Shown: positions 6,399-55,437 of the stretch, in pieces | Numbering within the stretch: position 1 is the stretch's first letter | How the letters are laid out: the number at the start of each line of letters is the position of its first letter | NCBI GenBank assembly: GCA_030042035.1 | Contig: JASIAN010000067.1 | Span: 1 to 55,682, forward strand | Direction: 5' to 3' | Source: Alphaproteobacteria bacterium | GTDB lineage: Bacteria > Pseudomonadota > Alphaproteobacteria > ATCC43930 > CGMCC-115725 | DNA: 55,682 bases | The notes under the pieces: generated by a model | The model's input: only the letters and a program-made list of their open reading frames with translations | What the model was told of the DNA's origin: nothing | Databases searched by the model: none | Position numbers and translations under genes: made by a program

Positions 6399-6437
6399 CG
6401 GCCTGCGGCCGCCAACCCATATCGCGTGACAGCGAGA

Positions 6438-8603
6438 TCAGGCGGCCAGGGCCGAGTGGGCGTCTGCCAAATCCGCGAGGCGACGCTCCGCTCGGCGCGG
6501 CGCCACCACCAAACTCTCGGCCGGCAGCTTGTCCGATGGCGCGGCGGGTATCACCGGCACGGGCTCGGCGGTATCGCCGCGGGTCGTTGGCGCCATCCAG
6601 ATGCGTCCGATCATGCCGAGGGTTGCCGACCAAGTGGAGACGCTGACGGCGGTGGTATCAAGGCCGCTGGTGAAGATCTTGCGGATCAGGAGATCGCGTT
6701 CGACAGACGCCGGCAGATCGAAGCGCAGCGCAAGGAAGGACTCGTTGCCGCGTGCCACCGTGCCGGCGATGAAGCCCACGCCCCTGAGGAACAGCCGGAC
6801 CGGATCGCCGACCGCGAACGGCCGCTCCGCCGCCGCCTCGAGCGCCACGCCTGCGCCGGAGAGAGAGATATCCTTGACGCGGCCGATCAGGAGATGGCCG
6901 CGCCGCTCGCTCAGCCAGGCCGGTTCGTCGATCTCGAAACGCTCCTCGCTGCGGCGGACCGGCGCCTGCAGGCACAACATACAGACCAGAAACAGCACCA
7001 CTACGTTGACGGAGCCCCAGCACGCCACCATGGGCAGCAGCGCCGTCTGTTCGACCACCCGCCAATCCGGCACCGCGTTGATGGTGAGGCCAAGGAGCGT
7101 CAACAGCATCAGGCTGAGAGCCGTCCAGAAGATGCCGCGCTCGTAGCCCGCGCCCGCCGCGCTGCCGCCTTTCGGCGTAACATTGAACAGGTGGCCGTGC
7201 GGGCGAAGGGCGGTCTGCAGCGTGGCCGGCAGAACCTTGAAGCTCTGGAAGGTGCCGAGAACCTGTGCTGCCAGCGGAAAATAATGACCGCGGCCAAAGA
7301 CGCTGATGCCTCCGACCACCGCCATTACCATCGGCACGAGATAATAAAGCACCGGTCCCAGCGTCACGTTGATGAGCGGCGGCAGGCCGGTCCACAGAAA
7401 GACGAGCGGCGTCACGATCGACATCAGCAGCATGAGCCCCTGGCTCAGCCAGTGTGTCGGCAGGAACAGCAGCCGGTGCATTGGACGCAGACCGCGGCCG
7501 AGCGGGCCTTCCGGAAGATACAACATCTGGATGGCGCCGCGCGCCCAGCGCTGGCGCTGCACAAAGAAGGCCTTGATGCTCTCCGGCGCCAGGCCGTAGG
7601 CGAGCCGCTCGCAGAGATAGCGCGTGATGAAGCCGTGCCGCAGCATCACCAGGCTCAACAACATGTCTTCGGTGACGGAGCCGGTAGGGAGCGCATCACC
7701 GACCGCGCGCATCGCGGCGCGACGGGTCACCGAGTTGGAGCCACAGCAGAAGGCGGCGTTCCAGCCGTCGCGGCTCGGCATGATCGCTTCGAAAAAGAAC
7801 CGCTGATCATCGGGCAGCCGCTTGCGCAGCGCCAGGTTCGCCTGCAGCGGGTCGTGGTTGTAGAAGGCGTGCGGCACCTGCACGATGCCGACCTTGGGAT
7901 CGTCAAAAAACCCAAGCGTGCGCATCAGGAAGTTGCGCTGGGGAATGAAGTCGGCATCGAAGACGGCAACAAAATCGCCATTTGTTTGAGCCAGCGCATG
8001 ATTGATATTGCCGGCCTTGGCATGGGCATTGTCGGCGCGAGTGATATAACCCACGCCCTTGGCGGCGCAGAACTCCTTGAGCCAAGGGCGGCGGCCGTCA
8101 TCCAGCACCCAGATGGCGGCATTTGGATAGTCGAGCGAAAGCGCGCCGACGATCGTCTTCTCCAACACCTCCAACGGTTCGTTATAGGTGGGGATATAAA
8201 CGTCGACGCTGGGGAGCCGCTCCGGCGGCAAGCTGCGCAGCCGGACCTCGTGCCGGCGCGCTTCCTCGCGCCGGTCGGTGCTGCGCAGGAATGCCAGGTA
8301 AAGAATGAGCGCATCGCCGAGCGCCAGCAGCTCGACCAGAAAGTTGACCCAAATCCAGCCGATCTCCGGCGCGGAACCCGCGGCCGGCAGCACCGTGTCA
8401 AAGAAGCGCCACGCGAGGTAGCGCGCCACGACGATCCATACCGCCGCAAAGATCAGCCACCGCGCCCAGGCGCGCCGCATCGGCAAGATCGGACCGATGA
8501 CATGGATGACGGCGACGACGAGCGCGATCGGCGCCAGCGCGATACTCAGAGACAGCGGATCAACCGGCACGCGCGGAACTTCCGCCGGCAACACGGGTCT
8601 CAT
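6438..8603 (-). CDS. Processive family-2 glycosyltransferase (cellulose-synthase-like beta-glycan synthase) with a C-terminal PilZ c-di-GMP receptor domain
   Basis: Multi-pass membrane protein with GT2 motifs VLDDG, HAKAGN, FDADF, CCGSN, TED and QRQRW (QxxRW). PilZ motifs RRSEER (RxxxR) and DISLSG (DxSxxG) lie at aa 550-583, about nt 6669-6962. Confidence 0.9.
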   Translation of the reverse strand: MRPVLPAEVPRVPVDPLSLSIALAPIALVVAVIHVIGPILPMRRAWARWLIFAAVWIVVARYLAWRFFDTVLPAAGSAPEIGWIWVNFLVELLALGDALILYLAFLRSTDRREEARRHEVRLRSLPPERLPSVDVYIPTYNEPLEVLEKTIVGALSLDYPNAAIWVLDDGRRPWLKEFCAAKGVGYITRADNAHAKAGNINHALAQTNGDFVAVFDADFIPQRNFLMRTLGFFDDPKVGIVQVPHAFYNHDPLQANLALRKRLPDDQRFFFEAIMPSRDGWNAAFCCGSNSVTRRAAMRAVGDALPTGSVTEDMLLSLVMLRHGFITRYLCERLAYGLAPESIKAFFVQRQRWARGAIQMLYLPEGPLGRGLRPMHRLLFLPTHWLSQGLMLLMSIVTPLVFLWTGLPPLINVTLGPVLYYLVPMVMAVVGGISVFGRGHYFPLAAQVLGTFQSFKVLPATLQTALRPHGHLFNVTPKGGSAAGAGYERGIFWTALSLMLLTLLGLTINAVPDWRVVEQTALLPMVACWGSVNVVVLFLVCMLCLQAPVRRSEERFEIDEPAWLSERRGHLLIGRVKDISLSGAGVALEAAAERPFAVGDPVRLFLRGVGFIAGTVARGNESFLALRFDLPASVERDLLIRKIFTSGLDTTAVSVSTWSATLGMIGRIWMAPTTRGDTAEPVPVIPAAPSDKLPAESLVVAPRRAERRLADLADAHSALAA

Positions 8604-9837
8604 GAGCGCCGATCATGTCGGTAATGAACCGCCAGGCCGCGGCGATGCCGAAGCCGCGGCGATGAAAGCGGACCTCGGCGAGCCGGCCGATATTGCAGAA
8701 ACCGGCGGCGTTCTTCGCCGCCGTCGGCGGCAGCGCGACCTCGACGCTGATCTGACCGCCGCCCGGATCGGGGATGTGCGCGGCAAGGAGACGCGTGTCA
8801 TCACGCGCCGCCGAGCCGCGTACGTGTCCCACAATGCCCTGCAACCAATGGTTGGTTCCATAAAGGCGGACCATCACCGGATCGCCGGTCCTCATCGTCC
8901 CGAAGTCCCGTTCGGGTACCTGCACCACGACAAAACGCCTCTGGCAATCGGCGAGGTCCATGATCGGTTGGCCTTCCGTGACGGCGGAACCCGGGCTTGC
9001 CAGCACAGACCAGACGACATAGCCGGCGGGAAGCGCCAGCGCGTAGCTGGAAAGCTGCGCGATGCGTTGGCGCTCCGCCGCACTCTCCGCCGCAAGCTGC
9101 GCGAGGCGCGAGCGGGCATCGAGCAAGGTTGCCTGCAGCTCCTGGCGACGCAGCAGCAGCCGATCGCGTTCCTGCGCCGTATAGGGCGTGTCGTTGAACC
9201 CATCCTCGAGGAAGATCCCGACGCGCGCCGCCGCGGCTTCCGCCTTGAGCCGCCCGATCTGGGCGATGATCGCCCGGCAGCGCGCCAACGTGCTGGCATG
9301 CGTGGCAGCGATATTGTCGAGGCGCTGCGGTGAGATCACGCCGGCCTTGGCGAGCAGGTCGGCGCGCGCCAGCGCCTTTGCCTGTTGCTGTTCGTCGGCA
9401 TCGCAGCCGGCCAGATTGGCGGTGGTCTCATCACTCTCGTATGCAAGCCGGGCCAGCACCGCTTCGCGGTAGCGTGCGGTCTCCTCTGCGAGCCTGCGGT
9501 CGGCGGCCTTCACCTGCGCGAGCTGCGCCTCAACCAAGGCGGCTTGCGCCTCTGCCGTTGCGTATTGCTGCTGCAGCCGCACGAGGGTGCGGCGGTCCGG
9601 CGGCAACGCCTCGATCAGCCTCGTCTTCGTCGTCCCGTCCATCAGCGCACCCTTGGCGGGCAGATCATGGGCAACTTCGCCGCTGATCGGCGCGGTGACC
9701 CGCAGGAGTTCGGCATTGACGAAGGCGGAGCTGGCGACGTGATAGGCAAGATAAGGGAAGAATGCCCAGAGCGCTGTTGCCAGCAATACAGAGGCGAGTG
9801 ACAGCCGCACAAGACGGCTGCGAACGAACTTTTCCAT
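8560..9837 (-). CDS. HlyD-family membrane-fusion (periplasmic adaptor) protein
   Basis: N-terminal TM helix (LVRLSLASVLLATALWAFF), barrel-sandwich start VNAELLRVTAPISGEV, a long Ala/Gln/Arg-rich coiled coil, and a C-terminal beta domain. The 3' end overlaps the GT2 start by 44 nt. Confidence 0.85.
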   Translation of the reverse strand: MEKFVRSRLVRLSLASVLLATALWAFFPYLAYHVASSAFVNAELLRVTAPISGEVAHDLPAKGALMDGTTKTRLIEALPPDRRTLVRLQQQYATAEAQAALVEAQLAQVKAADRRLAEETARYREAVLARLAYESDETTANLAGCDADEQQQAKALARADLLAKAGVISPQRLDNIAATHASTLARCRAIIAQIGRLKAEAAAARVGIFLEDGFNDTPYTAQERDRLLLRRQELQATLLDARSRLAQLAAESAAERQRIAQLSSYALALPAGYVVWSVLASPGSAVTEGQPIMDLADCQRRFVVVQVPERDFGTMRTGDPVMVRLYGTNHWLQGIVGHVRGSAARDDTRLLAAHIPDPGGGQISVEVALPPTAAKNAAGFCNIGRLAEVRFHRRGFGIAAAWRFITDMIGAHETRVAGGSSARAG

Positions 9838-9905
9838 CGGCGACTGTCACCACCAATCGGCGCAGAGTGCGCCGCCCGCACGCGCGGATTCTTAATGCGC
9901 GCGCC

Positions 9906-9921
9906 TTAAACCGGGATTAAC
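9906..9921. promoter_or_regulatory. CtrA-type box TTAA-N7-TTAAC upstream of the HlyD-like/GT2-PilZ operon
   Basis: TTAAACCGGGATTAAC lies 69-84 bp upstream of the start at 9837. An extra TTAA at 9892-9895 is preceded by a GANTC (GATTC) site at 9887-9891. Confidence 0.5.
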
Positions 9922-9962
9922 TCAGGTGGTGAGCGAGCCTCGAGCGGCGGCCGCAGCGGCGG

Positions 9963-10148
9963 TCAGCTCTTGCCAATCTTCGCAAAACCATGCTGCTGCC
10001 AACGCCGCTGCGCGATTCGGCGGCACACCGCGCCGAGCAGCAGCGCCGCGGCATCCGAGGTCATCGTCCCGCCGCTGAACGCAGCCACCACCGACCGCCC
10101 ATCAACGCCGGCAACACCCAACAGCTCCGCGCTCCATTCTGTCTGCGT
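9963..10148 (-). pseudogene. Relic of an IS1380-family transposase gene (N-terminal about 60 codons only)
   Basis: The minus-strand translation ...TQTEWSAELLGVAGVDGRSVVAAFSGGTMTSDAAALLLGAVCRRIAQ... matches the conserved IS1380 N-terminus (..GRR.VV..FDGG.ITSDAG.LLLREV.RR..). There is no start codon, the frame stops after 61 residues, and no DDE core follows. Confidence 0.4.
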
Positions 10149-10283
10149 CGGGCTCCCCCGAATCCAACACCAACCGCTGCTCCGATGCACTACCCCCTGT
10201 GAGCAATGCGGGCTAGGGTGACATCGCCGGTCCGGCCGATCGAACCACGGCCCGGCCGCAGCGACGCCGATCCGGTTAATTGC

Positions 10284-14607: not shown

Positions 14608-15765
14608 ATGAGGGCAGCCGCAGTGGTGGGATTGCTGGCCGGTCTACTTGCCGGCTGCTCGGCTCTGCCGACCGCCGGTCCGACCGCCAGCCAGATCGTG
14701 CGGCAGGGGGACGAGAACAGCCGGCCGCGCTTCGACCTCGTCGATATCAACAGCAACGTCGTTGCCGCGCTGCGCGCTACACGGGTCGAGAGTTTCGCCG
14801 CCCGCTTTAAGAAATACGGCAAGCCGCCGCCGCAGCGGATTGCGGTCGGCGACAGCATCGTCGTCTCGATCTGGGAAGCTGCCGGCGGCGGGCTGTTCAG
14901 CGAGGGCGGCGCCAACGGCGACGTCACGTCGGGATCGCGCAACGTCACGATCCCGCAACAGGTGGTCGGTCAGGACGGCGGGATCAGCGTGCCGTTTGCC
15001 GGGCGCATCCCCGTTGCCGGTGTGCTGCCGCTCGAAGCGCAGCGGGCGATCGAGCGGCGCCTCGCCAAAAAGGCAATTGAGCCGCAGGTCATCGTCACGG
15101 TCACGAAGAGCGTCGCCAACAGCGTCACAGTGACGGGCGAGGTCGTGCACGGCGCGCGCCTCCCGCTGTCGGTCAGGGGCGATCGGCTGCTCGACGTCAT
15201 CGCCGAGGCGGGCGGCGCGTCAGGGCGGATTTACGAGACGTTTGTGCGGCTGTCGCGCGGCGGCGTCACCGCGACAATCGCGCTCGAGACCCTGGTTTCG
15301 CACCCCGCCGAGAACATCTATGCGCAACCCGGCGACGTCCTGACGCTGGTCCGCGTGCCGCGCTCGTTCACCGTCCTCGGCGCGACCGGGGTCAACGCCG
15401 ACATCCCGTTCCCTTCCGAACGGCCGACCCTCATCGAGGCGCTGGCCAAGGCGGGCGGGCTGCAGGACCAGCGCTCCGACCCGTCGGGCGTCTTTCTGTT
15501 CCGCTATGAGCCGCCGCGTGTCGTGCGCGCGTTGGGGGAACCGCCGCTCGACACCGGGCCGGACCACAGCACACCCGTCGTCTATCGGCTCGATATGCGC
15601 GACGCCAAATCCTATTTCCTCGCACAGCGGTTTCCGATCCGCGACAAGGACATCATCTACGTCGCCAACGCCGATCTCGATGAATTGCAGAAATTCTTTA
15701 CCCTGCTCAATACCTTGACCGGCCCCGTTCTGACCGGGGTCGTGATCAAGAATACGGTGCCGTAG
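14608..15765 (+). CDS. Polysaccharide export outer-membrane lipoprotein (Wza/KpsD/RkpU-like: Poly_export + SLBB)
   Basis: Lipobox LLAGC at residues 14-18. Poly_export-like IAVGDSIVVSIWE...VVGQDGGISVPFAGRIPVAGVLPLEAQRAIERRL, and an SLBB-like GDVLTLVRVPRSFTVLG. Confidence 0.88.
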   Translation: MRAAAVVGLLAGLLAGCSALPTAGPTASQIVRQGDENSRPRFDLVDINSNVVAALRATRVESFAARFKKYGKPPPQRIAVGDSIVVSIWEAAGGGLFSEGGANGDVTSGSRNVTIPQQVVGQDGGISVPFAGRIPVAGVLPLEAQRAIERRLAKKAIEPQVIVTVTKSVANSVTVTGEVVHGARLPLSVRGDRLLDVIAEAGGASGRIYETFVRLSRGGVTATIALETLVSHPAENIYAQPGDVLTLVRVPRSFTVLGATGVNADIPFPSERPTLIEALAKAGGLQDQRSDPSGVFLFRYEPPRVVRALGEPPLDTGPDHSTPVVYRLDMRDAKSYFLAQRFPIRDKDIIYVANADLDELQKFFTLLNTLTGPVLTGVVIKNTVP

Positions 15766-15788
15766 CGCCGCCGCCCGCGTTTCGGCCG

Positions 15789-17009
15789 ATGCTCATGCTC
15801 GACGTCTCACGTCTGTTGTCGCGCGCCGGACGCGCGACGCCGACCGGCATCGACCGGGTCGAGATGGCCTATGCGCGGCGCCTGATCGCGAACGGCGCCG
15901 CGGCCCGCTTTGCTGCGGTCAAGCCGACCGGCGGGCTCGGCCTCCTGCCGGATCGCGCCGCCCGAGAGTTCGTCGAGGCGATTGCGGCGCGCTGGCGCGG
16001 CGATGGCGCGTCGCCGCAGCCGACGCGACCGGTCTCGCGCATCGCCCGCCAACTGCGCCTCCGGCTATTGGGATCGCGTGAGCTGGCGCCGACCCGGCGG
16101 CGCACGAATGGCGGCGCGGTATACCTCCTCGTGTCGCATCACCACTTGGAGAATTGCGCGCTCCTCGCGCGGCTCAGACAGCGGGCCGGGGCAAGGTTCA
16201 TCTGTCTGATCCACGATCTGATCCCCGTCCAATTCCCCGAATACGCCAGGCCGGGACAGGCGGAGAAACACCTGCGACGCATCCGCAACGCCGCCCAATT
16301 CGCCGACGCGCTGATCGTCAATTCGGCGGTGACACGCGACGCGCTGCAATGCCAGATCGATCGCGCCGGACGTGCGCCGCCGGTTCTCGTCGCGCCGTTC
16401 GGCACCGATCTGCCGACCGCAGCGCCTCATGCCGCGCCGCCGCTGCCCCGCCCCTATTTCGTCTGCGTCGGCACGATCGAGGCGCGCAAGAACCACCTGC
16501 TGCTGCTCAACGTGTGGCGCCAACTCGCCGCCGAACTCGGAGAGCACACGCCGATCCTCGTGCTAATCGGCCGGCGCGGCTGGGAAACCGAGAACGTCGT
16601 CGACATGCTCGAGCGCTGCCCGGCGCTGCGCCCTTGCGTCATCGAGCACGGCGCGCTGTCCGACGCCGCGATGGTGCCGCTGCTCGCCGGGGCGCGCGCG
16701 TTGCTGCTGCCGTCCTTCGCCGAGGGGTTCGGCTTTCCGGTCATCGAGGCGCTGGCGCTGGGCGTCCCGGTGCTGTGCAGCGATGTGCCGGCCTTGCGGG
16801 AGACCGGCGGCGGCATCCCCGAGTTTTTCGACCCGCTTGACGGGCCGGGATGGCGATCGGCGATCCTCGATTATGCGGCGTCGCAGTCGCCGCGGCGTGC
16901 CGCCCAGCTGGCCCGCCTCAACGGCTGGCGGCCGCCGCGCTGGCGGGATCATTTCGCAATGGTCGAGCGGTTCATCGGCGAGGTCGCCGCCGCCCCGCCG
17001 GTCCCGTAG
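15789..17009 (+). CDS. GT4-family (GT-B) glycosyltransferase
   Basis: YFVCVGTIEARKNHLLLLNVW...LLLPSFAEGFGFPVIEALALGVPVLCSDVPALRE is the EX7E-type retaining GT4 C-terminal domain. The gene begins 23 nt after the exporter gene. Confidence 0.88.
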   Translation: MLMLDVSRLLSRAGRATPTGIDRVEMAYARRLIANGAAARFAAVKPTGGLGLLPDRAAREFVEAIAARWRGDGASPQPTRPVSRIARQLRLRLLGSRELAPTRRRTNGGAVYLLVSHHHLENCALLARLRQRAGARFICLIHDLIPVQFPEYARPGQAEKHLRRIRNAAQFADALIVNSAVTRDALQCQIDRAGRAPPVLVAPFGTDLPTAAPHAAPPLPRPYFVCVGTIEARKNHLLLLNVWRQLAAELGEHTPILVLIGRRGWETENVVDMLERCPALRPCVIEHGALSDAAMVPLLAGARALLLPSFAEGFGFPVIEALALGVPVLCSDVPALRETGGGIPEFFDPLDGPGWRSAILDYAASQSPRRAAQLARLNGWRPPRWRDHFAMVERFIGEVAAAPPVP

Positions 17010-17015
17010 CAAGGG

Positions 17016-18416
17016 TCACCCCGGGCGCGCCGACAGGCCCGCGAGATGGCGTGCCACGGCGGCGAGATCGGCCGGTTCGGCCGCCACCGCCCGCGCCTCT
17101 TCCACCACAATTTCGACCGCCTTGCGCACCTGCTCTTCGCTGTGCTCGGCGGTCAGGAAGAAGCGCAGCCGGGCGGCGCGCTCGGCGACCGCCGGGTAGA
17201 GGATCGGCTGGACGTTGATGCCGCGGCGGAACAACGCCTCTGCGAGCCTGCCGGCGGCGATCGAGCTGCCGGTGATGACCGGCACGATCGCCGCGCCGAT
17301 CGAACCGCCGACCTCGAGCCCCTTCGCGCGCGCCAGCTCCAGAAACAGGCGGGCGCGCTGGTTGAGGCGGCGGACGCGCTCGGGCTCGCGTTCGAGGATA
17401 TCGATCGCGGCCAGCGCTGCCGCCGCCGCCGCTGGCGCCATGCCGACCGAAAATACAAACCCTGGCGCCGTGCGCTTCAGGTAGGCGATGAGGTCCTTGC
17501 GGCCGGCGATATAGCCGCCGCAGGACACGAGGCTTTTGCTCAACGTGCCCATCCAGATATCGACCTCGTTCGGGTCGATCCCGGCGTGGTCGGCCGAGCC
17601 GAAACCGCGCGGGCCCAAGACGCCCAGCGCGTGTGCGTCGTCCACCATGAGCCACGCGCGATGGCGCCGCGCGACGGCGACGAAGGCGGCGAGATCGGGC
17701 ACGTCGCCGTCCATGCTGTAATGGCCCTCGATGACGAGGAGCGCATTGGCGTGGCGCGCGCGCGCCTCGGCGAGGGCGCGATCCGCCGCCGCGGCGTCGA
17801 GGTGGCGAAACGGCACGCGCCGCGCCCCCGACAGCAGCGCCCCCTGCGCGATGCTGTTGTGGATCAGCGCGTCATGCACGATCAGGTCATGGCGCCCCAA
17901 CAGATGCCCGATCACGGTTACGTTTGTCGCGTGGCCGCCGACCAGCGTAATGCTGTCCTCGGCGCCGTGCAGCCGGGCCAGCGCGCACTCCAGGTCGCGA
18001 TGGATCGGCCGTTCGCCCGACACTGGCCGACTGGCGGAAACCGACGTGCCGTAGCGGTCGATTGCCGCCTTGGCGGCCGCCGTGATGCGCGGATCGCCGT
18101 TCAGCCCGAGATAATTGTAGGACGCGAAGTTGAGATAGAAGCGGCCGTCGATCGGCGTTTCAGCGGCGGCGACGCCATCGTGCACCCGGAAGAACGGATC
18201 GGCGATGCCGAGATAATCCGCCGCCTCCTCGATCATATGGACGTCGCGCCAGCCGTCCAATTGGCGAACGTCGAGGCGGCCGGTCTCGAGGCTGGCCTCG
18301 ACGCGCGGTCGACGCGGCACGCCGGCCGCCAGCCGCCCGGCCGCCGGCGCCAATTTCTCAATGAGCCGCGCCTTTGCGTGCGCCGACAGGCCAAACAGGT
18401 CGCGACCGGCCGCCAT
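17016..18416 (-). CDS. PLP-dependent alpha-oxoamine synthase family enzyme (AONS/serine-palmitoyltransferase/RkpG-like)
   Basis: NFASYNYLGLNG, GGHATN, MVDDAHALG and GTLSKSL (PLP lysine) are the AOS-family motifs. The start is taken at MAAGRDLF (complement of 18414-18416), 4 nt after the PKS stop. Confidence 0.9.
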   Translation of the reverse strand: MAAGRDLFGLSAHAKARLIEKLAPAAGRLAAGVPRRPRVEASLETGRLDVRQLDGWRDVHMIEEAADYLGIADPFFRVHDGVAAAETPIDGRFYLNFASYNYLGLNGDPRITAAAKAAIDRYGTSVSASRPVSGERPIHRDLECALARLHGAEDSITLVGGHATNVTVIGHLLGRHDLIVHDALIHNSIAQGALLSGARRVPFRHLDAAAADRALAEARARHANALLVIEGHYSMDGDVPDLAAFVAVARRHRAWLMVDDAHALGVLGPRGFGSADHAGIDPNEVDIWMGTLSKSLVSCGGYIAGRKDLIAYLKRTAPGFVFSVGMAPAAAAAALAAIDILEREPERVRRLNQRARLFLELARAKGLEVGGSIGAAIVPVITGSSIAAGRLAEALFRRGINVQPILYPAVAERAARLRFFLTAEHSEEQVRKAVEIVVEEARAVAAEPADLAAVARHLAGLSARPG

Positions 18417-18420
18417 CGGC

Positions 18421-21400
18421 TTACCCGGCAGCCGCCGAATCGACGGGCAGCGGTTCCGGCCGTGCGACCGCATTCGCCAGCCCGTCGCGCCGATCGGCAT
18501 CGACTATCTCGTAGCGCGCCGCCAGATTGACGACGGCGCTTGCCGGCTGCGACGCCGCGAGGGCGGTGGCGAGGCGGCTGGCAATCGAGACGACGCTCGT
18601 GCCCTCGGCCAGCGACATAAGCGGCAGATTGATGCCCAGGCGGGTTTCGAGCGCCAGGCGCAACTCGACCGCCATCAGCGAATCCATGCCGACCTCCGAG
18701 AGCGGCCGCAGCGGATCGAGCGAGCCGGCCGGCAGGCGCAGAATGGCCGCGGCTTCGTCGGCGACGGCGATTGTGAGCAGCGCCGCCGCCTCGTCCGGGC
18801 CGAGCCCGGCGAGCCGTTCGAGCAACTCGTCGCCGCCCTGGGCGGCGGGACCGTCGGCGAACAGCTCGGCAAACAGCGGTGCGGCGAGGATCGGCAAATG
18901 GCGGCGCGGTTCCTGCCAACTGGTCTCGGCCAAGGCGGCGACGGGGAGGCCGCTGCCGAGCAGCGCCGGCAGCGCTGCCAGCATTTGCGCCGCCGGCTGC
19001 GGCCTGGCGCCGAGCCGGCGCGCCAACGCCTCACGCGCCGCCGGCCGTTCGGCGAGGTATCCGGTATCGGCGACCGGCCCCCAGGCGACCGCGAGCGCCG
19101 GCAGGCCTTCGGCACGCCGGCGGCGGGCCAGCGCCTCCAGCGCCAGATTGGCCGCGACATATGCCCCCTGCGCCGGCGCGCCGAGTAATGTCGTCGCCGA
19201 CGAGAACAACAGAAACAGCTCGATCGGGTCGTCGCGGGTCAGGCGGTCGAGAACCAGGGCGCCGCCGAGCTTGGGGCGCAGCACCGTCGCGATCGCCGCA
19301 TCGTCAAGTTCGGCGGCGACCCCATCGACGATCGCCGCGGCGGCATGGACGATGCCGCGAAGCGGTGGCTGCGCCGCCCGGATTTCAGCCAGAACGGCGG
19401 CGAGCGAGCCCTGATCGGCAACATCGGCCGCATAGAGCCGCACATCGTCGGCCCCGAGCGCGCCCAATTCGGCAGCGCGCTCGGCGGCTCCCGGCGTTGC
19501 CGCACCGCGCCGGCCGACCAGCGCAATCGCGCCGGCACCCTGGCGTGCGAGCCATTCCGCTGCAGCAAAGCCGAAGCCGGAGATGCCGCCGGTAACCAGA
19601 TACGTGCCGTCCCGCCGCAGCGCGACATGCGGCGTGTCGCGCAGCCGCACCGCGGCATTGCCGTGCGGCAGCAGGACCAGCTTGCCGATGTGCCCCGACG
19701 CCTGCATCAGGCGGAACGCGTCGCCCGCCGCGGCGAAACTGAAGCGGCGATGCGCCAAGGGCCGGATCGCGCCATCGCCGAGCGCGGCGGCAATCTCGCC
19801 CAGCAGCGCTTCGGCGAGGTCCGGCCGCTCGATCGGCAGCCGGTCGATATCGATTGCGAAATACGAAATATTCTGCCGCAGCGGACGCAGATGAATGCGC
19901 CGATTGAGATAGAAGTCGCGTTTGCCGAGTTCGAGAAAGCGGCCGAACGGCTTCAACACGCCAAGGCTGTCCTCCATTGCTTCGCCGCTCAGCGAATTGA
20001 GCACGACATCGACGCCGCGGCCGCCCGTTATCGCGCGCACCGCATTGCCGACGCCCGGATCGCGCGACCCGAGCACGTGGTCGGCGCCGGCCAATCGCAG
20101 GAAATCGCGTTTCACGTCCGAGCCGGCCGTCGCGATGACGGTGGCGCTGCGATATTTTGCGTATTGAATGGCCGCGAGACCGACGCCGCCGGCAGCGGCA
20201 TGGATCAGCACCGTTTCACCAGGCGCCAGCCTGGCGAGCGTGCCGAGCGCATAGCTCGCCGTGACAAACGCCACCGGGAGTGTCGCGGCCGCGGCAAAGC
20301 TCGTCCCGGGCGGCAGGCGCATGACCGCGCGCGCCGCGGTCGTCACTCGGCTGGCCAGCGAGGCCGGGGCAAACCCGGCGACCCGGTCGCCGACATTGAG
20401 ATGCGCGACGCCCGGACCGATCGCGCTGACGATGCCGGCGCATTCGAGACCGTAGCTCGGGCCGGTGAAGCCATCGATCAGCGCCTCTTCCGGCACCAAT
20501 CCCATCGCCCACATGATGTCGCGGAAATTGAGTCCGGCCGCCGCGACGTCGATCGCGATCTCGCCGGGTCCCGGCGGCCGCGGCGCCGCCCGCCGCCAGC
20601 CGAGCGTGTCGATGCCGCCCTGCGGCGCGCCGGCGAGGCCGATCGGATCGCCGGCGGCGGCCCACAGCGGCGGCAGTCCGCGGCGCAGCCGCAGGACATG
20701 CCGGCCGGCGCTGGTCCAGACAATCTCGGTTTCGCCATCGGCAGCCGTCAGTTCGGCCGCGAGCGCGGCAGCGCGTTCATCATCGGTCAGCGTCGGAGAC
20801 AGATCGATGAGGCGCAGCTGCAACCGCGGGGTCTCGTTAACGAGCACACGCGCGATGCCCCACGCGGCGGCACCGCTTGGCCCGCGATCGCCGGCGTCGG
20901 CAGGCTGTTGCGCGCCGGTCGTGACGAGCCATAGCGGCAGCTGCCGCCGCGCCGCGTCGCTCGCGATGCGGATGAGCTGCATCGTCAGCCGCGCGGTCGC
21001 CGCAACGGCGCCGCTGTCGCCGGTCGCATCGGCGATCATGAGGATCATGTCACCGTCATCGCCCGCGGCGCCATCGTCGTCGGTCTCTGCTGCCGCGGCA
21101 AGGGCCGCCACCTCGGTAACACGCACGGCGTGGCCATGTCGCGACAAGCGCTCGGCAAGCGCGCTGCTGCCGTCCCCGATCGCCGCGATCAGATTTATCC
21201 TACGCGACCGCGGCTCCGGCCGCGCGATTTCGCCGGCGATCGGCGCCCTGCCCCAAAACAGTGCGCACGGCCACGGACCCGCCGCCAGCGCGAGAGTTCC
21301 GGCGGTGACAAATCCGCCGTCCGCGAGTTCGTCGCGCCACGCCGCACCCGCTCGCAACGGCGACGGGGCATCGGCGTCGCCGCTGTCCGGCCACCAGCCG

Positions 21401-24400
21401 GCCTGTCGACCGAACACCAGGTCCCATAACGGGTTGGGCTCGGGTTCCGCGGCGATCAACAGGCCCCCCGGCGCAAGCTGCTGGCGCAATGCCGAGAGCG
21501 CCGCGCCGTCGATGCCCATTCGCGCGCAGGTGTTGAGCGCGACGATCACGTCAAACCGGTCGGCGCCGAGCCGCGCCGCCTCCGCCGCATCGGGGCTCGT
21601 CGCGCGGTAGGTGAGCGCCGCGCCGGACGCCGCCAGGCGATCGAGAAACTGCCGGGGCGGGCTGGCTTGCGCGCCGATCTCGAGCAGCCGCAACGGGCGG
21701 CCCTTCGGCCACCGCGCGGCGATCTCGGTAAGCAGCCGGCTCACCAGGTCGATCCCCGCGGCGGCGGCCGGCGAGCCGGACAGCAGGTGGTCGATCGTTG
21801 CGGCGATCGCCTTTTCCGGCGGCCGCGGGCCTTCCGCCAGGAAACGCGCCAGATCGGCTGCCGTTGCTGCGACCAGCGCGAGTTCGGCAACCAGTTCCGG
21901 CGTTTCGGCCAGCAGTAGCCGCCAGACATCGGCCATCTCGGGCAGGTCGTTATTCGCGGCGATGCGCCACACCGGCCCCGCTGAGCGCGCAGCCCCGAAC
22001 CGCTCCAAGAGCCGCAGCAGACCCCCGAACAGCGCCGCGGCATCGGGCGCGATGTCGCCGGAAGCGATGAGCGCTGCGACCGTGAACGGCGTCTCGCGCC
22101 CGACCGCGCTCGGCATCGCCGCAAGCGCTGCCGACGCGATCAGCGCGTCGCAGAGCAGCCGCCGTTCCGCGCCGTCTTCGGCCTTATCGGGCGCGTCGGA
22201 TAGGAGCCGCGTCGCGATCAGGGCGATGTCGTCGAAGACCGCGGGCGGCGCCGTCTCGCCGAGCGGGGCCGGTACGAGCTCGGTGCGCAGCACAGCATCC
22301 TCGGGTGCCACCCGGTGGGACAGCTCGACCCGCCGGAACCAGCAATCGGTCAGTTCGCCGATCGCGGCGCCCTTCTCGTCGAACAGCACGATATCGGCCG
22401 ACACCGAGCGGATGCCGCGGCGCGTCAGGCGCAGCCAAGCGCGGCACACGCTGCGTCCGAACGGCGCCATAATGCGCACCCGCCCGAAGCGCCACGGCAA
22501 GAGGCTGACGCCGGCCGCGTCGCCATCTCCGTCGGCCGTCAGCGCCAGCAGCCCCTGCAATGCCCCATCGAGCAGCGCCGGATGAACGAGATAGTCGTCG
22601 CCGGCGGCGCCGACGACCGACGCATCGAGGTCCACCAACACCGTGCCGTCTGCCAGCCGATCCACCCGGCGCACGGTGCGAAATCGCGGGCCGTAATCGA
22701 GCCCGAACCGGCCGGCGAGCCGGTAGAGCGTTGCGCCGTCGATCGCCGATGCGGCCGCTGCGGGATCGTCGAGGCCGGGCGGTGGCGGCAGATCGCCGGC
22801 CGCGACCAGCCGCGCGACGGCATGCAACGTCAACGGCTCTTCGGTCAGCCGCAACCGGCTGAGGAGCTCAAAATCGCCGTCCTCGGCCGAGACGACTGAG
22901 CGAACCTCACGCGGCCGCCCGTTGTCGAACGGCAGCGGGCGGCGCAGTTCGACATCGGCGACCTCGACGGCAGCGGCGTCCGGCCGCCGCAGCCGCGCCG
23001 CCGCCAGCGCCATTTCGAGCACCGCGGCGGCCGGCAGCACCGCGACGCCTTCGACCGCGTGATCGGCGAGCCACGGCACCTGTTGCGGATCGAGATAGTT
23101 GAGCCACGATGCGACCGGCCCCGGCTGGCGAAATCCCAGCAGCGGATGCGCAAACGGCGGATCGGCGACCTGCGTGTCTTCGACCGTCCGGTCAAACCAG
23201 AAACGTTCCTTGTGCCACGGGTAGAGCGGCAGGCCCGTCGGATCGCCGGGCCCGTCGAACCGCTCGCTGCCGGCAATCGTGTGGCCGGCGACATGGCAGC
23301 GCGCGACGATCGCCGGAAACGGATCGTCGCCGCTTTCGTTGCGCGTCAGCGTCGCCAGCACCCGCCCCTCGCCGTCCGCCGCCCGCAGCGCATCCTTTAC
23401 GTAGGCTTGCAGCACCGGGCTCGGACCGATTTCGAGAAAGATCCGGCTGCCGGACGCCGCCAGCGCCGCCATCCCATCCGCGAAGCGCACTGGGCTGCGG
23501 ATGTTGCGCCACCAGTGACGGGCGTCGAGATCGCCGGCGGAGACCTTCCGGCCGGTGACCGTCGAAATCAGCAGCGTCTCGGGCACACCCGAAACGAGGC
23601 CGGCGAGATCATCCAGCAGGCCCGCGCGGATCGGCTCCATCGCCGCCGAGTGAAAGGCGAAATCGAGATCGAGCGGGCGGCAGGCGATGCCGCGACGGCG
23701 CGCCTCGGCGGCGAGCCGATCGATCGCCTCGCACGGCCCCGACGCCGTGACCGATTGCGCCGCGTTGATCGCGCCGATCTCGAGCGCACTGCCAAGCTCG
23801 GCGAAGAGTTCCTCGGCGGCGGCCGCGCCGAGCGCCAGCGCCGCCATGCGCCCCGTGCCGCGCGTGCGCTCCTGCTGCCGGCTGCGCGCGACGACGACCC
23901 GCACCGCCGCGGCGAGGCTCAACGCGCCGGCGGCCCACGCGGCTGCAATTTCGCCGACGCTGTGCCCGATATGGCCGGCGGCCGCGATCCCGAGGCGACG
24001 CAGCACGGCGACGACGCCGACTTGGGTTGCGAACAGCAGCGGCTGGGCGACATCGGCGCGCACGAGCCGCTCCGGCTCGGTACCGCGTGCGATCGCGTCG
24101 GCGGCCGACCAGCCGAGCAGCGGCTGCAACTCGGCGTCGACTTCCGCCATCGCTTCGCGAAAGGCTGAGCTGGTCCGATACGCGTTGCGCCCCATGCCCA
24201 GCCATTGCGCGCCGTTGCCGGAAAACACAAAGGCGAGTTTGCCGTCGCGCAGGGCGGTCCCGGTGACGAGCGACAGGTGATCGGCGCCGCCGGCGAAATC
24301 GCCGAGCGCCGCGGCCATCTTCGCTACGTCGGCGCACGTCGCGACGAGGCGCTCGGCATGATGATCGCGTCGCCGCGCCGCGGCGCGAACCATCGCCGGG

Positions 24401-25803
24401 ATGCTGTCGGTCGATGCGGCGGCGAGCGCCACCTGCCAGCGCTGCGCCAGCTCGCGCAGCGACGCCTCGGTTCTCGCCGACAGCAGCAACGGCGGCAGCG
24501 CGGCGTCGTGCGGCACCGGTGGCGCGCGGTGCGGCGGCGCAGCCAGGATCGCGTGCCCGTTGGCGCCGCCGAACCCGAACGAATTGACGCCGGCGCAGCG
24601 CCCGCTCTCAATCGTTTCGCACTCTCGCACCAGCCGCAGATTGAGCCGTTCAAACGGAATGGCGGGGTTGGGCTCGTCGCCATAGAGCGTCGGCGGCACG
24701 ACACCCCGCTCCAGCGCCAGCGCCGCTTTGATCAGGCCGGCCATGCCCGAGGCCGGTTCCAGATGGCCGATATTGGTTTTGACCGAACCGATCGGCAGCG
24801 GCATCGTGCGCGCCCGCCCCAGCGCCGCGCCGACCGCAGCCGCCTCGACCGGATCGCCGGCGGGCGTTCCGGTGCCGTGCATCTCGAAAAACGCCAACGC
24901 GTCTGGCGCAACCTTCGCGCCCTCGCAGACCTGGCGGATCAGCGCCGCCTGCGCCGCCTCGCTCGGCAGCGACAGGCCGATCGTGCGGCCATCCGAGTTG
25001 ACGCCGGTGCCGAGAATGACGGCGCGGATCGGGTCGCCGGCGGCGAGCGCCTCAGCCAGCGGCTTTAACACAACAACGCCGCCGCCCTCACCGCGGACAT
25101 AGCCGTCGGCGCGGGCGTCAAACGCGAAACAGCGGCCGCGGCGGGACAGCATCGCGGCGCGGCAGAAGCCGATAAATGGATAGGGCGCCAACAAAAGGTT
25201 GATGCCGCCGACGAAGGCGCCGGCGATCTGCTCGCTGCGGATCGCTTCGCACGCATGATGCAGCGCCACCAGAGAGGACGAGCAGGCGGTATCGATCGCA
25301 AGGCTCGGGCCACGCAGATCAAACACATGCGAGATACGGTTGGCGAGGATGCTAAGCGTCCCGCCGGTCATGAAATACGAGTCGCCGCTCGCCGGATCGC
25401 CGAGCCTGAGGTCGCGGTAGTCGGTCGTCGATGCGCCGATATAGACGCCGAATTCGGTGCCGGCGAGGCTGGCGGCGGGGATGCCGGCATCCTCGGCGGC
25501 GTGCCACGCCAGTTCCAGCAGGATCCGCTGCTGCGGGTCCATTTGCGCCGTTTCGCGCGGCGAGATGCCGAAGAACGCCGGCTCGAACAGATCGATGCCG
25601 TCGATGAGGCCGGCCGACCACGTATAGCTGCGGGCCGGCTCGCCAGGCGAGGGATGATAAAAAAATCGCGTCGACCAGCGTCGCTCGTCGACCTCGGAGA
25701 CCGCATCGGTTGCCGTCGTCAACAGGTCCCAAAAGGCGGCCAGATCGGGCGCGCCCGGGAAGCGGCAGGAAGCGCCGACGATCGCAATCGGGTCGTCTGT
25801 CAT
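18421..25803 (-). CDS. Type I polyketide synthase, single fully reducing module (KS-AT-DH-pseudoMT-pseudoKR-ER-KR-ACP, no TE); RkpA/MAS-like
   Basis: 2460 aa. KS: DTACSSS (C174), EMHGTGT, NIGHLE. AT: GHSVG (S614), FAFHS. DH: HPLLG, LADHAVEGVAVLP (H915), DYGPRF, LDGALQ. MT-like: LEIGAQAS. ER: LIHAAAGGVGLAA. KR: YLVTGGISGFG, GAYVAAN. ACP: GMDSLM (S2375). The 55-aa C-terminal tail has no GxSxG thioesterase motif. Confidence 0.95.
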   Translation of the reverse strand: MTDDPIAIVGASCRFPGAPDLAAFWDLLTTATDAVSEVDERRWSTRFFYHPSPGEPARSYTWSAGLIDGIDLFEPAFFGISPRETAQMDPQQRILLELAWHAAEDAGIPAASLAGTEFGVYIGASTTDYRDLRLGDPASGDSYFMTGGTLSILANRISHVFDLRGPSLAIDTACSSSLVALHHACEAIRSEQIAGAFVGGINLLLAPYPFIGFCRAAMLSRRGRCFAFDARADGYVRGEGGGVVVLKPLAEALAAGDPIRAVILGTGVNSDGRTIGLSLPSEAAQAALIRQVCEGAKVAPDALAFFEMHGTGTPAGDPVEAAAVGAALGRARTMPLPIGSVKTNIGHLEPASGMAGLIKAALALERGVVPPTLYGDEPNPAIPFERLNLRLVRECETIESGRCAGVNSFGFGGANGHAILAAPPHRAPPVPHDAALPPLLLSARTEASLRELAQRWQVALAAASTDSIPAMVRAAARRRDHHAERLVATCADVAKMAAALGDFAGGADHLSLVTGTALRDGKLAFVFSGNGAQWLGMGRNAYRTSSAFREAMAEVDAELQPLLGWSAADAIARGTEPERLVRADVAQPLLFATQVGVVAVLRRLGIAAAGHIGHSVGEIAAAWAAGALSLAAAVRVVVARSRQQERTRGTGRMAALALGAAAAEELFAELGSALEIGAINAAQSVTASGPCEAIDRLAAEARRRGIACRPLDLDFAFHSAAMEPIRAGLLDDLAGLVSGVPETLLISTVTGRKVSAGDLDARHWWRNIRSPVRFADGMAALAASGSRIFLEIGPSPVLQAYVKDALRAADGEGRVLATLTRNESGDDPFPAIVARCHVAGHTIAGSERFDGPGDPTGLPLYPWHKERFWFDRTVEDTQVADPPFAHPLLGFRQPGPVASWLNYLDPQQVPWLADHAVEGVAVLPAAAVLEMALAAARLRRPDAAAVEVADVELRRPLPFDNGRPREVRSVVSAEDGDFELLSRLRLTEEPLTLHAVARLVAAGDLPPPPGLDDPAAAASAIDGATLYRLAGRFGLDYGPRFRTVRRVDRLADGTVLVDLDASVVGAAGDDYLVHPALLDGALQGLLALTADGDGDAAGVSLLPWRFGRVRIMAPFGRSVCRAWLRLTRRGIRSVSADIVLFDEKGAAIGELTDCWFRRVELSHRVAPEDAVLRTELVPAPLGETAPPAVFDDIALIATRLLSDAPDKAEDGAERRLLCDALIASAALAAMPSAVGRETPFTVAALIASGDIAPDAAALFGGLLRLLERFGAARSAGPVWRIAANNDLPEMADVWRLLLAETPELVAELALVAATAADLARFLAEGPRPPEKAIAATIDHLLSGSPAAAAGIDLVSRLLTEIAARWPKGRPLRLLEIGAQASPPRQFLDRLAASGAALTYRATSPDAAEAARLGADRFDVIVALNTCARMGIDGAALSALRQQLAPGGLLIAAEPEPNPLWDLVFGRQAGWWPDSGDADAPSPLRAGAAWRDELADGGFVTAGTLALAAGPWPCALFWGRAPIAGEIARPEPRSRRINLIAAIGDGSSALAERLSRHGHAVRVTEVAALAAAAETDDDGAAGDDGDMILMIADATGDSGAVAATARLTMQLIRIASDAARRQLPLWLVTTGAQQPADAGDRGPSGAAAWGIARVLVNETPRLQLRLIDLSPTLTDDERAAALAAELTAADGETEIVWTSAGRHVLRLRRGLPPLWAAAGDPIGLAGAPQGGIDTLGWRRAAPRPPGPGEIAIDVAAAGLNFRDIMWAMGLVPEEALIDGFTGPSYGLECAGIVSAIGPGVAHLNVGDRVAGFAPASLASRVTTAARAVMRLPPGTSFAAAATLPVAFVTASYALGTLARLAPGETVLIHAAAGGVGLAAIQYAKYRSATVIATAGSDVKRDFLRLAGADHVLGSRDPGVGNAVRAITGGRGVDVVLNSLSGEAMEDSLGVLKPFGRFLELGKRDFYLNRRIHLRPLRQNISYFAIDIDRLPIERPDLAEALLGEIAAALGDGAIRPLAHRRFSFAAAGDAFRLMQASGHIGKLVLLPHGNAAVRLRDTPHVALRRDGTYLVTGGISGFGFAAAEWLARQGAGAIALVGRRGAATPGAAERAAELGALGADDVRLYAADVADQGSLAAVLAEIRAAQPPLRGIVHAAAAIVDGVAAELDDAAIATVLRPKLGGALVLDRLTRDDPIELFLLFSSATTLLGAPAQGAYVAANLALEALARRRRAEGLPALAVAWGPVADTGYLAERPAAREALARRLGARPQPAAQMLAALPALLGSGLPVAALAETSWQEPRRHLPILAAPLFAELFADGPAAQGGDELLERLAGLGPDEAAALLTIAVADEAAAILRLPAGSLDPLRPLSEVGMDSLMAVELRLALETRLGINLPLMSLAEGTSVVSIASRLATALAASQPASAVVNLAARYEIVDADRRDGLANAVARPEPLPVDSAAAG

Positions 25804-47289: not shown

Positions 47290-47305
47290 TTAACGGCCCC
47301 TTAAC
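47290..47305. promoter_or_regulatory. CtrA-type box TTAA-N7-TTAAC in the divergent MFS/flp intergenic region
   Basis: TTAACGGCCCCTTAAC lies 266 bp upstream of the flp-1 ATG and 195 bp upstream of the MFS start. Confidence 0.45.
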
Positions 47306-48068: not shown

Positions 48069-48830
48069 CTACAGGTATTTGGCCGGGCGGATCATCGCGC
48101 GCCACATATGCGCGACCGGGCTGTTGTCGAACCCCAGCCCTTCCTTCGGCTGGCGGAAGTTGCGGCCGATGATGTCGGTGAACTCCTCCAGCTCGACATG
48201 CACATTGGGGTCGAACGAATAGATGTCGTGCACGGTGATCATCCGGCCCGACATGTACCATTTGTGATCGCGCATCCGGCGGTAGTCTTCTTCGATGTAG
48301 GGGTCGGGCCGGTAATCGGCGCCGAACGTGGCGACGTAGGACTGCGGATACTCGTACCCGACCGAATCGTCGGGATAGAAGCGCAGCACCTGATGAGCGC
48401 GGATCGCCCACGCCACCTCCGCATCGACATAGGGCTCGACGAGTTGCGCGCCCCAATAGCCGTGGTCGCCACGGATAAAGCCGATCGTCGAGATGTCGTG
48501 CAAAAGGCAGGCAAGCACCATCTTCTCGCCGAGGCCGCCTCGGACCGCGTGCCGTGCGCTTTGCAAGAGATGCATGCACGGCCCGAAGCGATACTTGAAA
48601 AAGTCAATCAGCGTCGGCCGTTCGGGCATTTCCGGCAGGCGCGGGTCATCGCCCATCAACACGCGAGCCCGCGGATTGGCCGCCATCAGGCGGGCGGCGT
48701 TGGGCGGCGGGGAAAGATCGCCATCGGCCAGACTGTAAAGTCGCGATTTTATGACGATGTAATCGAGCTCGTCGCTCATCTGCTTTTCGAGCGCGTCGGC
48801 CCGCTCGCTCAGCGTCATCGCATCGTTCAT
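48069..48830 (-). CDS. HD-domain-containing protein
   Basis: ACLLHDISTIGF...RAHQ contains the H..HD metal-binding pattern. The start is at MNDAMTLSE with a GGAGGAAAG RBS. Confidence 0.65.
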   Translation of the reverse strand: MNDAMTLSERADALEKQMSDELDYIVIKSRLYSLADGDLSPPPNAARLMAANPRARVLMGDDPRLPEMPERPTLIDFFKYRFGPCMHLLQSARHAVRGGLGEKMVLACLLHDISTIGFIRGDHGYWGAQLVEPYVDAEVAWAIRAHQVLRFYPDDSVGYEYPQSYVATFGADYRPDPYIEEDYRRMRDHKWYMSGRMITVHDIYSFDPNVHVELEEFTDIIGRNFRQPKEGLGFDNSPVAHMWRAMIRPAKYL

Positions 48831-48927
48831 CGGTCTTTCCTCCGTTTCTGCACCGCCGGCGCAGCCTAACAGAGGCTCCGCCGGCTGCAACTGCGTTCGC
48901 CCCTGCCGCACGCGGGCAACGCCGCTG

Positions 48928-49533: not shown

Positions 49534-49659
49534 CGCTTCTCCTCGACCGAGCCGCTCGCCCAGCCCCGAGCAGGGTCCGGACGGGTGCAGGAAAACCGAA
49601 TACAAGCTGCGGGGCTTGCGGCGCAACCCCGTTATCCCGCCATGCCGCAGGGCCCGCAG

Positions 49660-50814: not shown

Positions 50815-50815
50815 G

Positions 50816-52750: not shown

Positions 52751-52777
52751 CGCTCGTCCGTCAGCGGCGCCGCGTCA

Positions 52778-53311: not shown

Positions 53312-53315
53312 CGCT

Positions 53316-54209: not shown

Positions 54210-54330
54210 CGCTTTCCCCCGTCAAATACCGACCGACGGCCGAACGCTTCGATCCGGCCGGCGTTGCGACACCGTTTTTATCATATTCCCCCCGACCCCC
54301 CGGTTCGGTAGCAACCTAGAACAAAGATTC

Positions 54331-55437
<1,107 letters not shown>

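Follow-up and report, generated by a model that had tools for sequence, protein, structure and literature searches.

This study analyzed a two-gene locus at positions 6438-9837 of a 55,682-nucleotide stretch of DNA from an Alphaproteobacteria bacterium (contig JASIAN010000067.1 of assembly GCA_030042035.1; this whole 55.7-kb stretch is hereafter called the window). Both genes lie on the minus strand, and they encode a periplasmic adaptor followed by a processive family 2 glycosyltransferase (GT2) that carries a C-terminal PilZ domain. The pair probably forms a minimal, self-contained bgsBA-family module for synthase-dependent exopolysaccharide production, in which the PilZ domain would gate synthesis in response to cyclic di-GMP (c-di-GMP), the adaptor would stand in for BcsB, and the polymer would exit through a TolC-family channel. 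Homology, architecture, motif conservation, conservation of the gene pair, and the boundaries of the module are the observations on which this assignment is built. The genes and domains are as follows.

8560-9837, minus strand: bgsB-like periplasmic adaptor of the EmrA/HlyD type, 425 amino acids (Pfam HlyD_3, BgsB homology, AlphaFold2 model, Foldseek)
6438-8603, minus strand: bgsA-like GT2, a processive beta-glucan synthase carrying a C-terminal PilZ domain, 721 amino acids from the first ATG
7536-8213, minus strand: GT-A catalytic domain, residues 131-356, with DDG, DAD, TED, QRQRW, HAKAGN, QVPH, and CCGSN (Pfam Glyco_tranf_2_3, translation)
6672-6956, minus strand: PilZ domain, residues 550-644 (Pfam, AlphaFold2, clade-wide motifs)
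6939-6953 and 6855-6872, minus strand: PilZ motifs RxxxR (RSEER) and DxSxxG (DISLSG), respectively (coordinates checked)

The gene pair and its junction

An earlier, sequence-only reading of this DNA had reported two open reading frames (ORFs) at 6438-9837 with a complete set of catalytic and PilZ motifs, and both the translation and the Pfam scans bear this out. The synthase contains VLDDGRR, FDADF, VTEDM, QRQRW, HAKAGN, and FCCGSN as well as the gating loop FNVTPKG. The 721-residue protein matched the GT2 families of Pfam with an E value of approximately 1e-23, and its residues 550-644 matched PilZ at 34.2 bits against a cut-off of 22.5, whereas the 425-residue adaptor matched HlyD_3 at 43.9 bits.

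The adaptor and synthase genes overlap whichever start codon is used. Homologues of the synthase are 707-710 residues long, and their N-termini align at a GTG at 8570, which is preceded by GGCGGAAG; this GTG is likely the true start, which would yield a protein of 710 residues. The overlap of 44 nt in the earlier reading thus holds only for the first ATG and shrinks to 11 nt (GTGCCGGTTGA) from the GTG, while the overlap as such stands. A plus-strand ORF of 732 codons at 6426-8624 was also considered and was dismissed as a shadow that the synthase gene casts on the opposite strand in high-GC DNA. Beyond the PilZ helix, the synthase ends in a tail (75 residues; residues 645-721, 6438-6668) that was modeled with low confidence, and the terminal motif EKLPAxSLVVxPRP of this tail is kept across close homologues.

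Relationship of the synthase to BgsA

The bgsBA operon of Sinorhizobium meliloti had been named earlier as the closest analogue, and the resemblance proved to be one of true homology that extends along the full length of both proteins. Residues 21-656 of the synthase align with S. meliloti BgsA at 42% identity, and residues 8-399 of the adaptor align with BgsB at 29% identity (E = 3e-37); in both organisms the adaptor gene comes first and overlaps the synthase gene. In a tblastn search of plasmid sequences with the synthase, the top matches were Sinorhizobium pSymB glycosyltransferases (42-43% identity, 84% coverage), and cellulose synthases ranked lower at approximately 33% identity. The synthase scored far below the cut-offs of the NCBIfam cellulose-synthase equivalogs, with 415 bits versus 699 for the CelA family TIGR03030 and 320 versus 992 for PRK11498.

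We then placed the synthase in a neighbor-joining (not maximum likelihood) tree, which was computed with Kimura distances from the glycosyltransferase and transmembrane core of 120 sequences (491 columns, 200 bootstraps); the set included 50%-identity representatives from a search of 1.8 billion proteins and contained no cyanobacterial sequence. The tree united BgsA, the crdASC-type synthase, an HlyD-linked synthase from a Bradyrhizobium plasmid, and the window synthase in a superclade that was separated from BcsA with 100% bootstrap support. Within it, the window subclade joined Sphingomonadales with 100% and Rhodobacterales with 75% support. The sequence-only reading had regarded a position firmly inside canonical BcsA as incompatible with its proposal, and both the bootstrap separation and the CelA score place the synthase outside that group.

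Oehme et al. (2019; S8 Table, PMC6821405) listed 33 residues that discriminate among AcsA, BcsA, CrdS, and BgsA. After the numbering of Rhodobacter sphaeroides BcsA was re-anchored by motif, 31 of the 33 positions were scored (position 183 was not scorable). The window synthase showed the BgsA-clade state at 26 of these 31 positions, compared with 11-13 for the CrdS state and 10 for the BcsA state, and it was directly identical to S. meliloti BgsA at 23. Its non-BgsA states occur at 276 (His), 417, 465, 479, and 501. The window synthase and BgsA also have in common a deletion after the DD motif.

These results bear directly on the possibility that the pair encodes a cellulose synthase that, like the cyanobacterial XcsA-XcsB-TolC type, does without BcsB and has a beta-1,4-glucan as its product. 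A PilZ-bearing synthase with an HlyD-like partner and no BcsB is precisely the cyanobacterial arrangement (PMC8892547, PMC12430437), the source databases call the homologues cellulose synthase (UDP-forming), and the His in the QxPH motif, which the whole clade carries, is the cellulose-synthase state. However, the BcsA state at 10 of the 31 positions compares poorly with the 26 BgsA states, the full bootstrap separation and the low NCBIfam scores set the protein apart from BcsA, none of the loci has an endoglucanase (XcsC/BcsZ) gene with the pair, and the published tree (PMC6821405) keeps the cyanobacterial clade apart from that of BgsA. We therefore consider this explanation unlikely.

A beta-1,3-glucan synthase of the curdlan type, with CrdA-CrdS as its relatives, was likewise considered, because CrdS falls in the same superclade and an HlyD-family gene occupies the crdA position directly upstream of the synthase in a crdASC-like locus. 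Nevertheless, the window synthase has the CrdS-specific state at none of positions 295, 318, 320, 359, 402, and 562, the pair has no crdC-like third gene, and CrdS-like proteins do not have the PilZ motifs of the clade. Curdlan synthesis is thus very improbable here.

Conservation and mobility of the pair

We recovered 80 related loci from Bradyrhizobium/Xanthobacteraceae, Hyphomicrobium, Stellaceae, Sphingomonadales, and Rhodobacterales, of which the 76 that include the region upstream of the synthase were informative. In all 76, representing four orders of Alphaproteobacteria, the synthase gene is immediately preceded by an adaptor gene on the same strand. No conserved third gene emerged from these loci; the most common other ORF family was found in 12 of the 76 and reflects lineage synteny.

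Even in the closest relative (locus L003), which is 85% identical at the protein level, the genes on either side of the pair are unrelated to those in the window. Nucleotide homology with this relative extends from a CtrA-type box (at approximately 9925) to approximately 10 nt past the stop codon of the synthase; between the box and the ATG the alignment is conserved, and farther upstream it falls to the random level. Because the homology spans exactly this interval while the flanks differ, the 3.5-kb module has been relocated as a unit. The features at its upstream end are as follows.

9838-9925, minus strand: operon promoter and 5' leader, the upstream edge of the conserved module (alignment with the closest relative L003)
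9906-9920: CtrA-type full box TTAATCCCGGTTTAA (minus-strand reading), starting 83 nt upstream of the adaptor ATG
9963-10160, minus strand: relic of the N-terminus of an IS1380-family transposase (tblastn; context, outside the machine)

The insertion sequence (IS) relic that had been noted earlier was confirmed as an IS1380-family transposase remnant by tblastn, with 55% identity over 49 amino acids to annotated IS1380 transposases (E = 2e-6). It also gave a weak Pfam match to DDE_Tnp_1_4 (profile positions 4-34) and no match to NCBIfam. The relic lies between ccmA and the module promoter, where it abuts the upstream end of the module and marks the insertion side. In metagenomic data, the sequence was found in DNA runs only, and the group to which the locus belongs is common in soil and peat.

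The adaptor and the export route

The AlphaFold2 model of the adaptor (mean predicted local distance difference test score [pLDDT] 80) comprises a transmembrane helix at residues 8-31, the two halves of a lipoyl domain, a long alpha-hairpin formed by helices 83-164, 170-205, and 217-261, and a beta-barrel at residues 309-392, with no membrane-proximal domain. The best NCBIfam match was the EmrA/EmrK subfamily, under its cut-off; profile matches included MexJ, EmrA, and MacA, and the top Foldseek matches were EmrA (4tko, E = 9e-16) and EmrAB-TolC (8zar).

These matches raise the question of whether the adaptor gene stems from an unrelated efflux pump, with the synthase being a canonical BcsA served by a BcsB gene at another site. 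The best matches in the Protein Data Bank by sequence and by fold are indeed drug-efflux adaptors, and most homologues are named "multidrug resistance efflux pump." However, no gene for a resistance-nodulation-division (RND), major facilitator superfamily (MFS), or ATP-binding cassette (ABC) transporter accompanies the adaptor, and the overlapped synthase gene is its sole constant neighbor. The adaptor is also a full-length homologue of BgsB, and the synthase lies under the BcsA equivalog thresholds and outside the BcsA clades. An origin of the HlyD gene in an unrelated efflux system, which the earlier reading had listed among the findings that would contradict it, is extremely improbable because the gene is paired with the synthase in every informative locus.

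Instead, the adaptor fits a pattern that has been described for other synthases. In S. meliloti, glucan production that depends on bgsBA was shown in 2026 to require TolC, and BgsA, BgsB, and TolC were proposed to form a complex (PMC13438883). An XcsA-XcsB-TolC model has been put forward for cyanobacterial cellulose (PMC8892547, PMC12430437), and these two papers cite Maeda 2018 for cyanobacterial operons that combine a PilZ synthase with an HlyD-like protein and have no BcsB. An HlyD-family gene (Pfam HlyD_3) also precedes the synthase gene in the crdASC-type locus. Because the bgsBA, XcsAB, and crdASC-type loci are alike in this respect, GT2 glucan synthases coupled to membrane fusion proteins (MFPs) form a recognized broad class. 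Two plasmid-borne examples were encountered, namely a PilZ-positive, HlyD-linked GT2 pair on a conjugative plasmid of Bradyrhizobium japonicum USDA 123 (L085, 4577-7890) and, on an Agrobacterium pAt plasmid, a trio of crdASC-like genes, of which the one in the CrdA position is annotated as HlyD family (L087, 4312-9245).

By analogy with these systems, export probably proceeds via a TolC-family channel encoded elsewhere. The sequence-only reading had called both the polymer and the export route open questions; the TolC requirement of bgsBA (PMC13438883) and the cyanobacterial precedent no longer leave the route open to the same degree.

The PilZ domain and c-di-GMP

The c-di-GMP binding of S. 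meliloti BgsA, with a KD of 0.23 uM, occurs through a C-terminal domain that has no PilZ motifs, and binding requires R599 and H615 (PMC5567048). The earlier statement on this point was right, and the contrast that it drew between the canonical PilZ domain of the window protein and the BgsA domain proved real by both Pfam and alignment. Pfam PilZ did not match S. meliloti BgsA even at E<=10, and the window clade has RxEERF and D-x-S-x-S-G versus RRLLQAF and SLSLDK in BgsA. Conversely, R599 of BgsA sits in an insertion that is missing from the window synthase, and H615 aligns with Ala.

Among 63 close homologues, R551, E553, E554, R555, F556, S580, G583, and E341 are invariant; D578 is conserved as well, and E341 corresponds to E371, the latch residue of BcsA. 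In the AlphaFold2 model, the PilZ region forms a six-stranded barrel (residues 556-628) followed by a helix (634-645) with pLDDT values of 77-84, and the whole synthase chain superposes on c-di-GMP-bound BcsA (4p00) with a template modeling (TM) score of 0.72. Because the canonical PilZ motifs and the gating glutamate are kept clade-wide, activation by c-di-GMP is probably BcsA-like.

We also built a hidden Markov model (HMM) of the C-terminal domain of the clade. It detected intact PilZ domains in proteins branching near S. meliloti BgsA (31-37 bits) and gave a weak but collinear match to S. meliloti BgsA itself (10-11 bits). The pattern suggests that PilZ is ancestral in the superclade and that the Sinorhizobium/Rhizobium BgsA domain may be a decayed derivative of it.

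A candidate CtrA box upstream of the operon

The CtrA box reported earlier is present at 9906-9920 and moves with the module, being kept in the closest relative, where the gene upstream is a different one. TTAA-N7-TTAA matches number 2 in the window versus 0.01 expected. Among 72 related upstream regions, full CtrA boxes occur in 5 (shuffle mean 0.14, maximum 2) and TTAACCAT half-sites in 8 (0.3 expected); these boxes and half-sites lie mostly at approximately -85 or -155 and are confined to the Bradyrhizobium/Xanthobacteraceae branch. No sigma-70 consensus was found in the promoter region. On these sequence patterns, CtrA control of the operon is plausible. The second perfect TTAA-N7-TTAA (TTAACGGCCCCTTAA) is located at 47290-47304, upstream of a region that ends in the mreB-pbp2-rodA genes for cell shape.

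Neighborhood in the window

On one side, the pair is flanked by genes for DUF1178, usg, a DegP-like protease, cbpA, and cbpM, and on the other by ccmA, ccmB, a short-chain dehydrogenase/reductase (SDR) gene, and rlpA, as identified by Pfam. When the flanking and larger ORFs of the window were scanned with Pfam, no BcsB, BcsC, BcsZ, endoglucanase, or TolC-type gene and no second glycosyltransferase beside the pair came to light, in agreement with the earlier description of the locus. A hidden or fused BcsB, which would have spoken against that description, was ruled out as well: the 721 residues of the synthase are fully accounted for by transmembrane, glycosyltransferase, and PilZ segments and a short tail, and the adaptor is EmrA-like throughout. 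No GGDEF gene lies beside the pair in the window or in the closest relatives, whereas S. meliloti has one beside bgsB.

A Wza-like outer-membrane polysaccharide exporter (OPX) gene with Poly_export and SLBB domains lies at 14608-15765, 4.8 kb from the pair. It was not assigned to the system; ccmAB, the SDR gene, and rlpA intervene, and it is not kept near the pair elsewhere. The gene appears to belong to a separate surface-polymer or lipid cluster at 14608-25803, which further contains a family 4 glycosyltransferase (15789-17009), a class I/II aminotransferase (17016-18500, minus strand), and a 2460-residue, single-module type I polyketide synthase with the domain order ketosynthase, acyltransferase, dehydratase, enoylreductase, ketoreductase, and acyl carrier protein (KS-AT-DH-ER-KR-ACP; 18421-25803, minus strand). 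The far end of the window (48069-55371) carries rodA (49660-50814), the PBP2 gene (50816-52750), and mreB (54331-55371), and these genes indicate a chromosomal housekeeping context.

Proposed mechanism

In the following scheme, the substrate, the linkage, activation by c-di-GMP, docking to TolC, and control by CtrA are inferred. The GT2 in the inner membrane would polymerize a linear beta-glucan from UDP-glucose and thread it through its own transmembrane channel. The PilZ domain would keep the enzyme inactive, and binding of a c-di-GMP dimer to RxxxR and DxSxxG would release it by breaking, as in BcsA, an Arg-Glu latch that fixes the gating loop FNVTPKG above the active site. The adaptor gene appears to be translationally coupled to the synthase gene, and its membrane-anchored EmrA/HlyD-type product would replace BcsB; the alpha-hairpin of this adaptor probably docks on a TolC-family outer-membrane channel encoded elsewhere to form a tripartite conduit to the cell surface. 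Transcription in this lineage is probably under CtrA. By analogy with S. meliloti, the product is most likely a mixed-linkage beta-1,3/1,4-glucan (MLG), for which cellulose would be the main alternative.

Several points weigh against this scheme. The outer-membrane partner remains putative because the window has no TolC-type gene. Bootstrap support for a clade of S. meliloti BgsA and the window synthase that leaves out CrdS is moderate, at just 58-62%. The published BgsA clade (clade 5; PMC6821405, S5 Table) already holds Bradyrhizobium Q89FJ5 and Sphingobium F6F1S5, both of which are orthologues of the window synthase family; membership in the BgsA clade had thus been published, and the score of 26 of 31 is partly circular because that clade included orthologues. 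The synthase model as a whole has medium confidence (pLDDT 69). For RiGT2, a PilZ-bearing MLG synthase, neither binding of nor dependence on c-di-GMP could be demonstrated (PMC10374906), and PilZ motifs alone are no proof of regulation. Finally, the acceptor-contacting residue of QxPH is His in 76 of 76 clade members, as in cellulose synthases, versus Gln in BgsA and CrdS, and the clade also departs from BgsA at positions 465, 479, and 501.

Because of this His and the changes at these three positions, the linkage pattern may differ from that of BgsA. Carried further, the clade would be a distinct MFP-coupled branch in which the His-for-Gln replacement and the changes at the channel entrance produce a linkage unlike that of cellulose, curdlan, or the strictly alternating rhizobial MLG, with synthesis timed by CtrA and gated by c-di-GMP. 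We regard this extension as improbable. If it were true, the locus would supply soil Bradyrhizobium-like bacteria with a TolC-exported surface glucan that is deployed with the cell cycle, for example as a polar or stage-specific adhesin; as a corollary, the "novel" c-di-GMP domain of S. meliloti BgsA would be a degenerate PilZ, the ancestral state of which is found in the window clade.

Significance of the locus

Both the observation and the interpretation of the sequence-only reading proved essentially right. The locus is best described as an MFP-coupled, BcsB-independent module of the bgsBA family for beta-glucan synthesis that retains a canonical PilZ domain; it is an uncharacterized but common variant of soil and peat Alphaproteobacteria and not a new kind of machine, and current models are not overturned by it. 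Only two bgsBA systems, both rhizobial, have been characterized, and the c-di-GMP receptor there was described as a novel non-PilZ domain. The locus analyzed here belongs to a far larger, unstudied sister group that extends across Bradyrhizobium/Xanthobacteraceae, Hyphomicrobium, Sphingomonadales, and Rhodobacterales, is common in soil and peat metagenomes, and has kept a textbook PilZ. With the BgsA domain as a suggested decayed PilZ, the two groups would offer a natural pair for dissecting how c-di-GMP sensing is rewired. The locus may also provide a two-gene minimal cassette with predictable regulation for engineering beta-glucan production, and it adds to the wider case for MFP/TolC-type conduits as a general alternative to BcsB/BcsC in the export of synthase-made glucans.

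Comparison with known systems

The bgsBA systems of S. meliloti (SMb20390/SMb20391) and Rhizobium etli, which make MLG upon activation by c-di-GMP and depend on TolC, resemble the window pair in having homologous proteins, overlapping genes in the order adaptor then synthase, and a two-gene autonomous module; the synthases further have in common that the stretch after the DD motif is short, that most discriminating residues show the BgsA state, and that they fall in the same published clade. The bgsB/bgsA overlap in S. meliloti is 19 nt, and the pSymB locus is adjoined by a diguanylate cyclase gene; this gene encodes a sensor diguanylate cyclase and is divergent beside bgsB (L081, 2224-3267). 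The systems differ in that BgsA is without PilZ motifs and binds c-di-GMP via R599 and H615, whereas the window protein keeps RxxxR and DxSxxG, has His instead of Gln in QxPH, and carries a 75-residue C-terminal tail. The window operon also has a CtrA box, whereas ExpR/quorum-sensing control was reported for S. meliloti.

The XcsA-XcsB(-XcsC)/TolC systems of cyanobacteria (Thermosynechococcus Tll0007/Tlr0903 and Synechococcus 1398/1399) share with the window pair a PilZ synthase, an HlyD-like adaptor, the absence of BcsB/BcsC, and a proposed TolC exit. However, they belong to the cyanobacterial clade 6 of Oehme et al., usually include an endoglucanase, and produce cellulose, whereas the family of the window synthase sits in the alphaproteobacterial BgsA clade of that published tree and no hydrolase lies beside the pair. 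CrdA-CrdS-CrdC of Agrobacterium is alike in its superclade and in the HlyD-family gene upstream of the synthase; it differs in that CrdS is without PilZ motifs, a third gene (crdC) is present, and the residues at CrdS-specific positions are not those of the window protein.

BcsA-BcsB (R. sphaeroides 4HG6/4P00 and Escherichia coli) matches the window synthase in fold (TM score 0.72), catalytic motifs, gating loop, PilZ domain, and Arg-Glu latch residues. Nevertheless, identity is approximately 33% over the aligned core in the tblastn match to E. coli BcsA and 27% in the structural alignment, the model of the window protein has three N-terminal helices and not four, the BcsA insertion after the DD motif is missing, the NCBIfam equivalog cut-offs are not reached, and BcsB, BcsC, and BcsZ are neither present in the window nor recurrent in related loci. 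The adaptor has the N-terminal membrane anchor, lipoyl domain, very long alpha-hairpin, and beta-barrel of EmrA (EmrAB-TolC) and HlyD adaptors and, like them, no membrane-proximal domain; it differs in its low identity to them (approximately 16-17%) and in its partner, which is a glycosyltransferase and not an MFS or ABC transporter.

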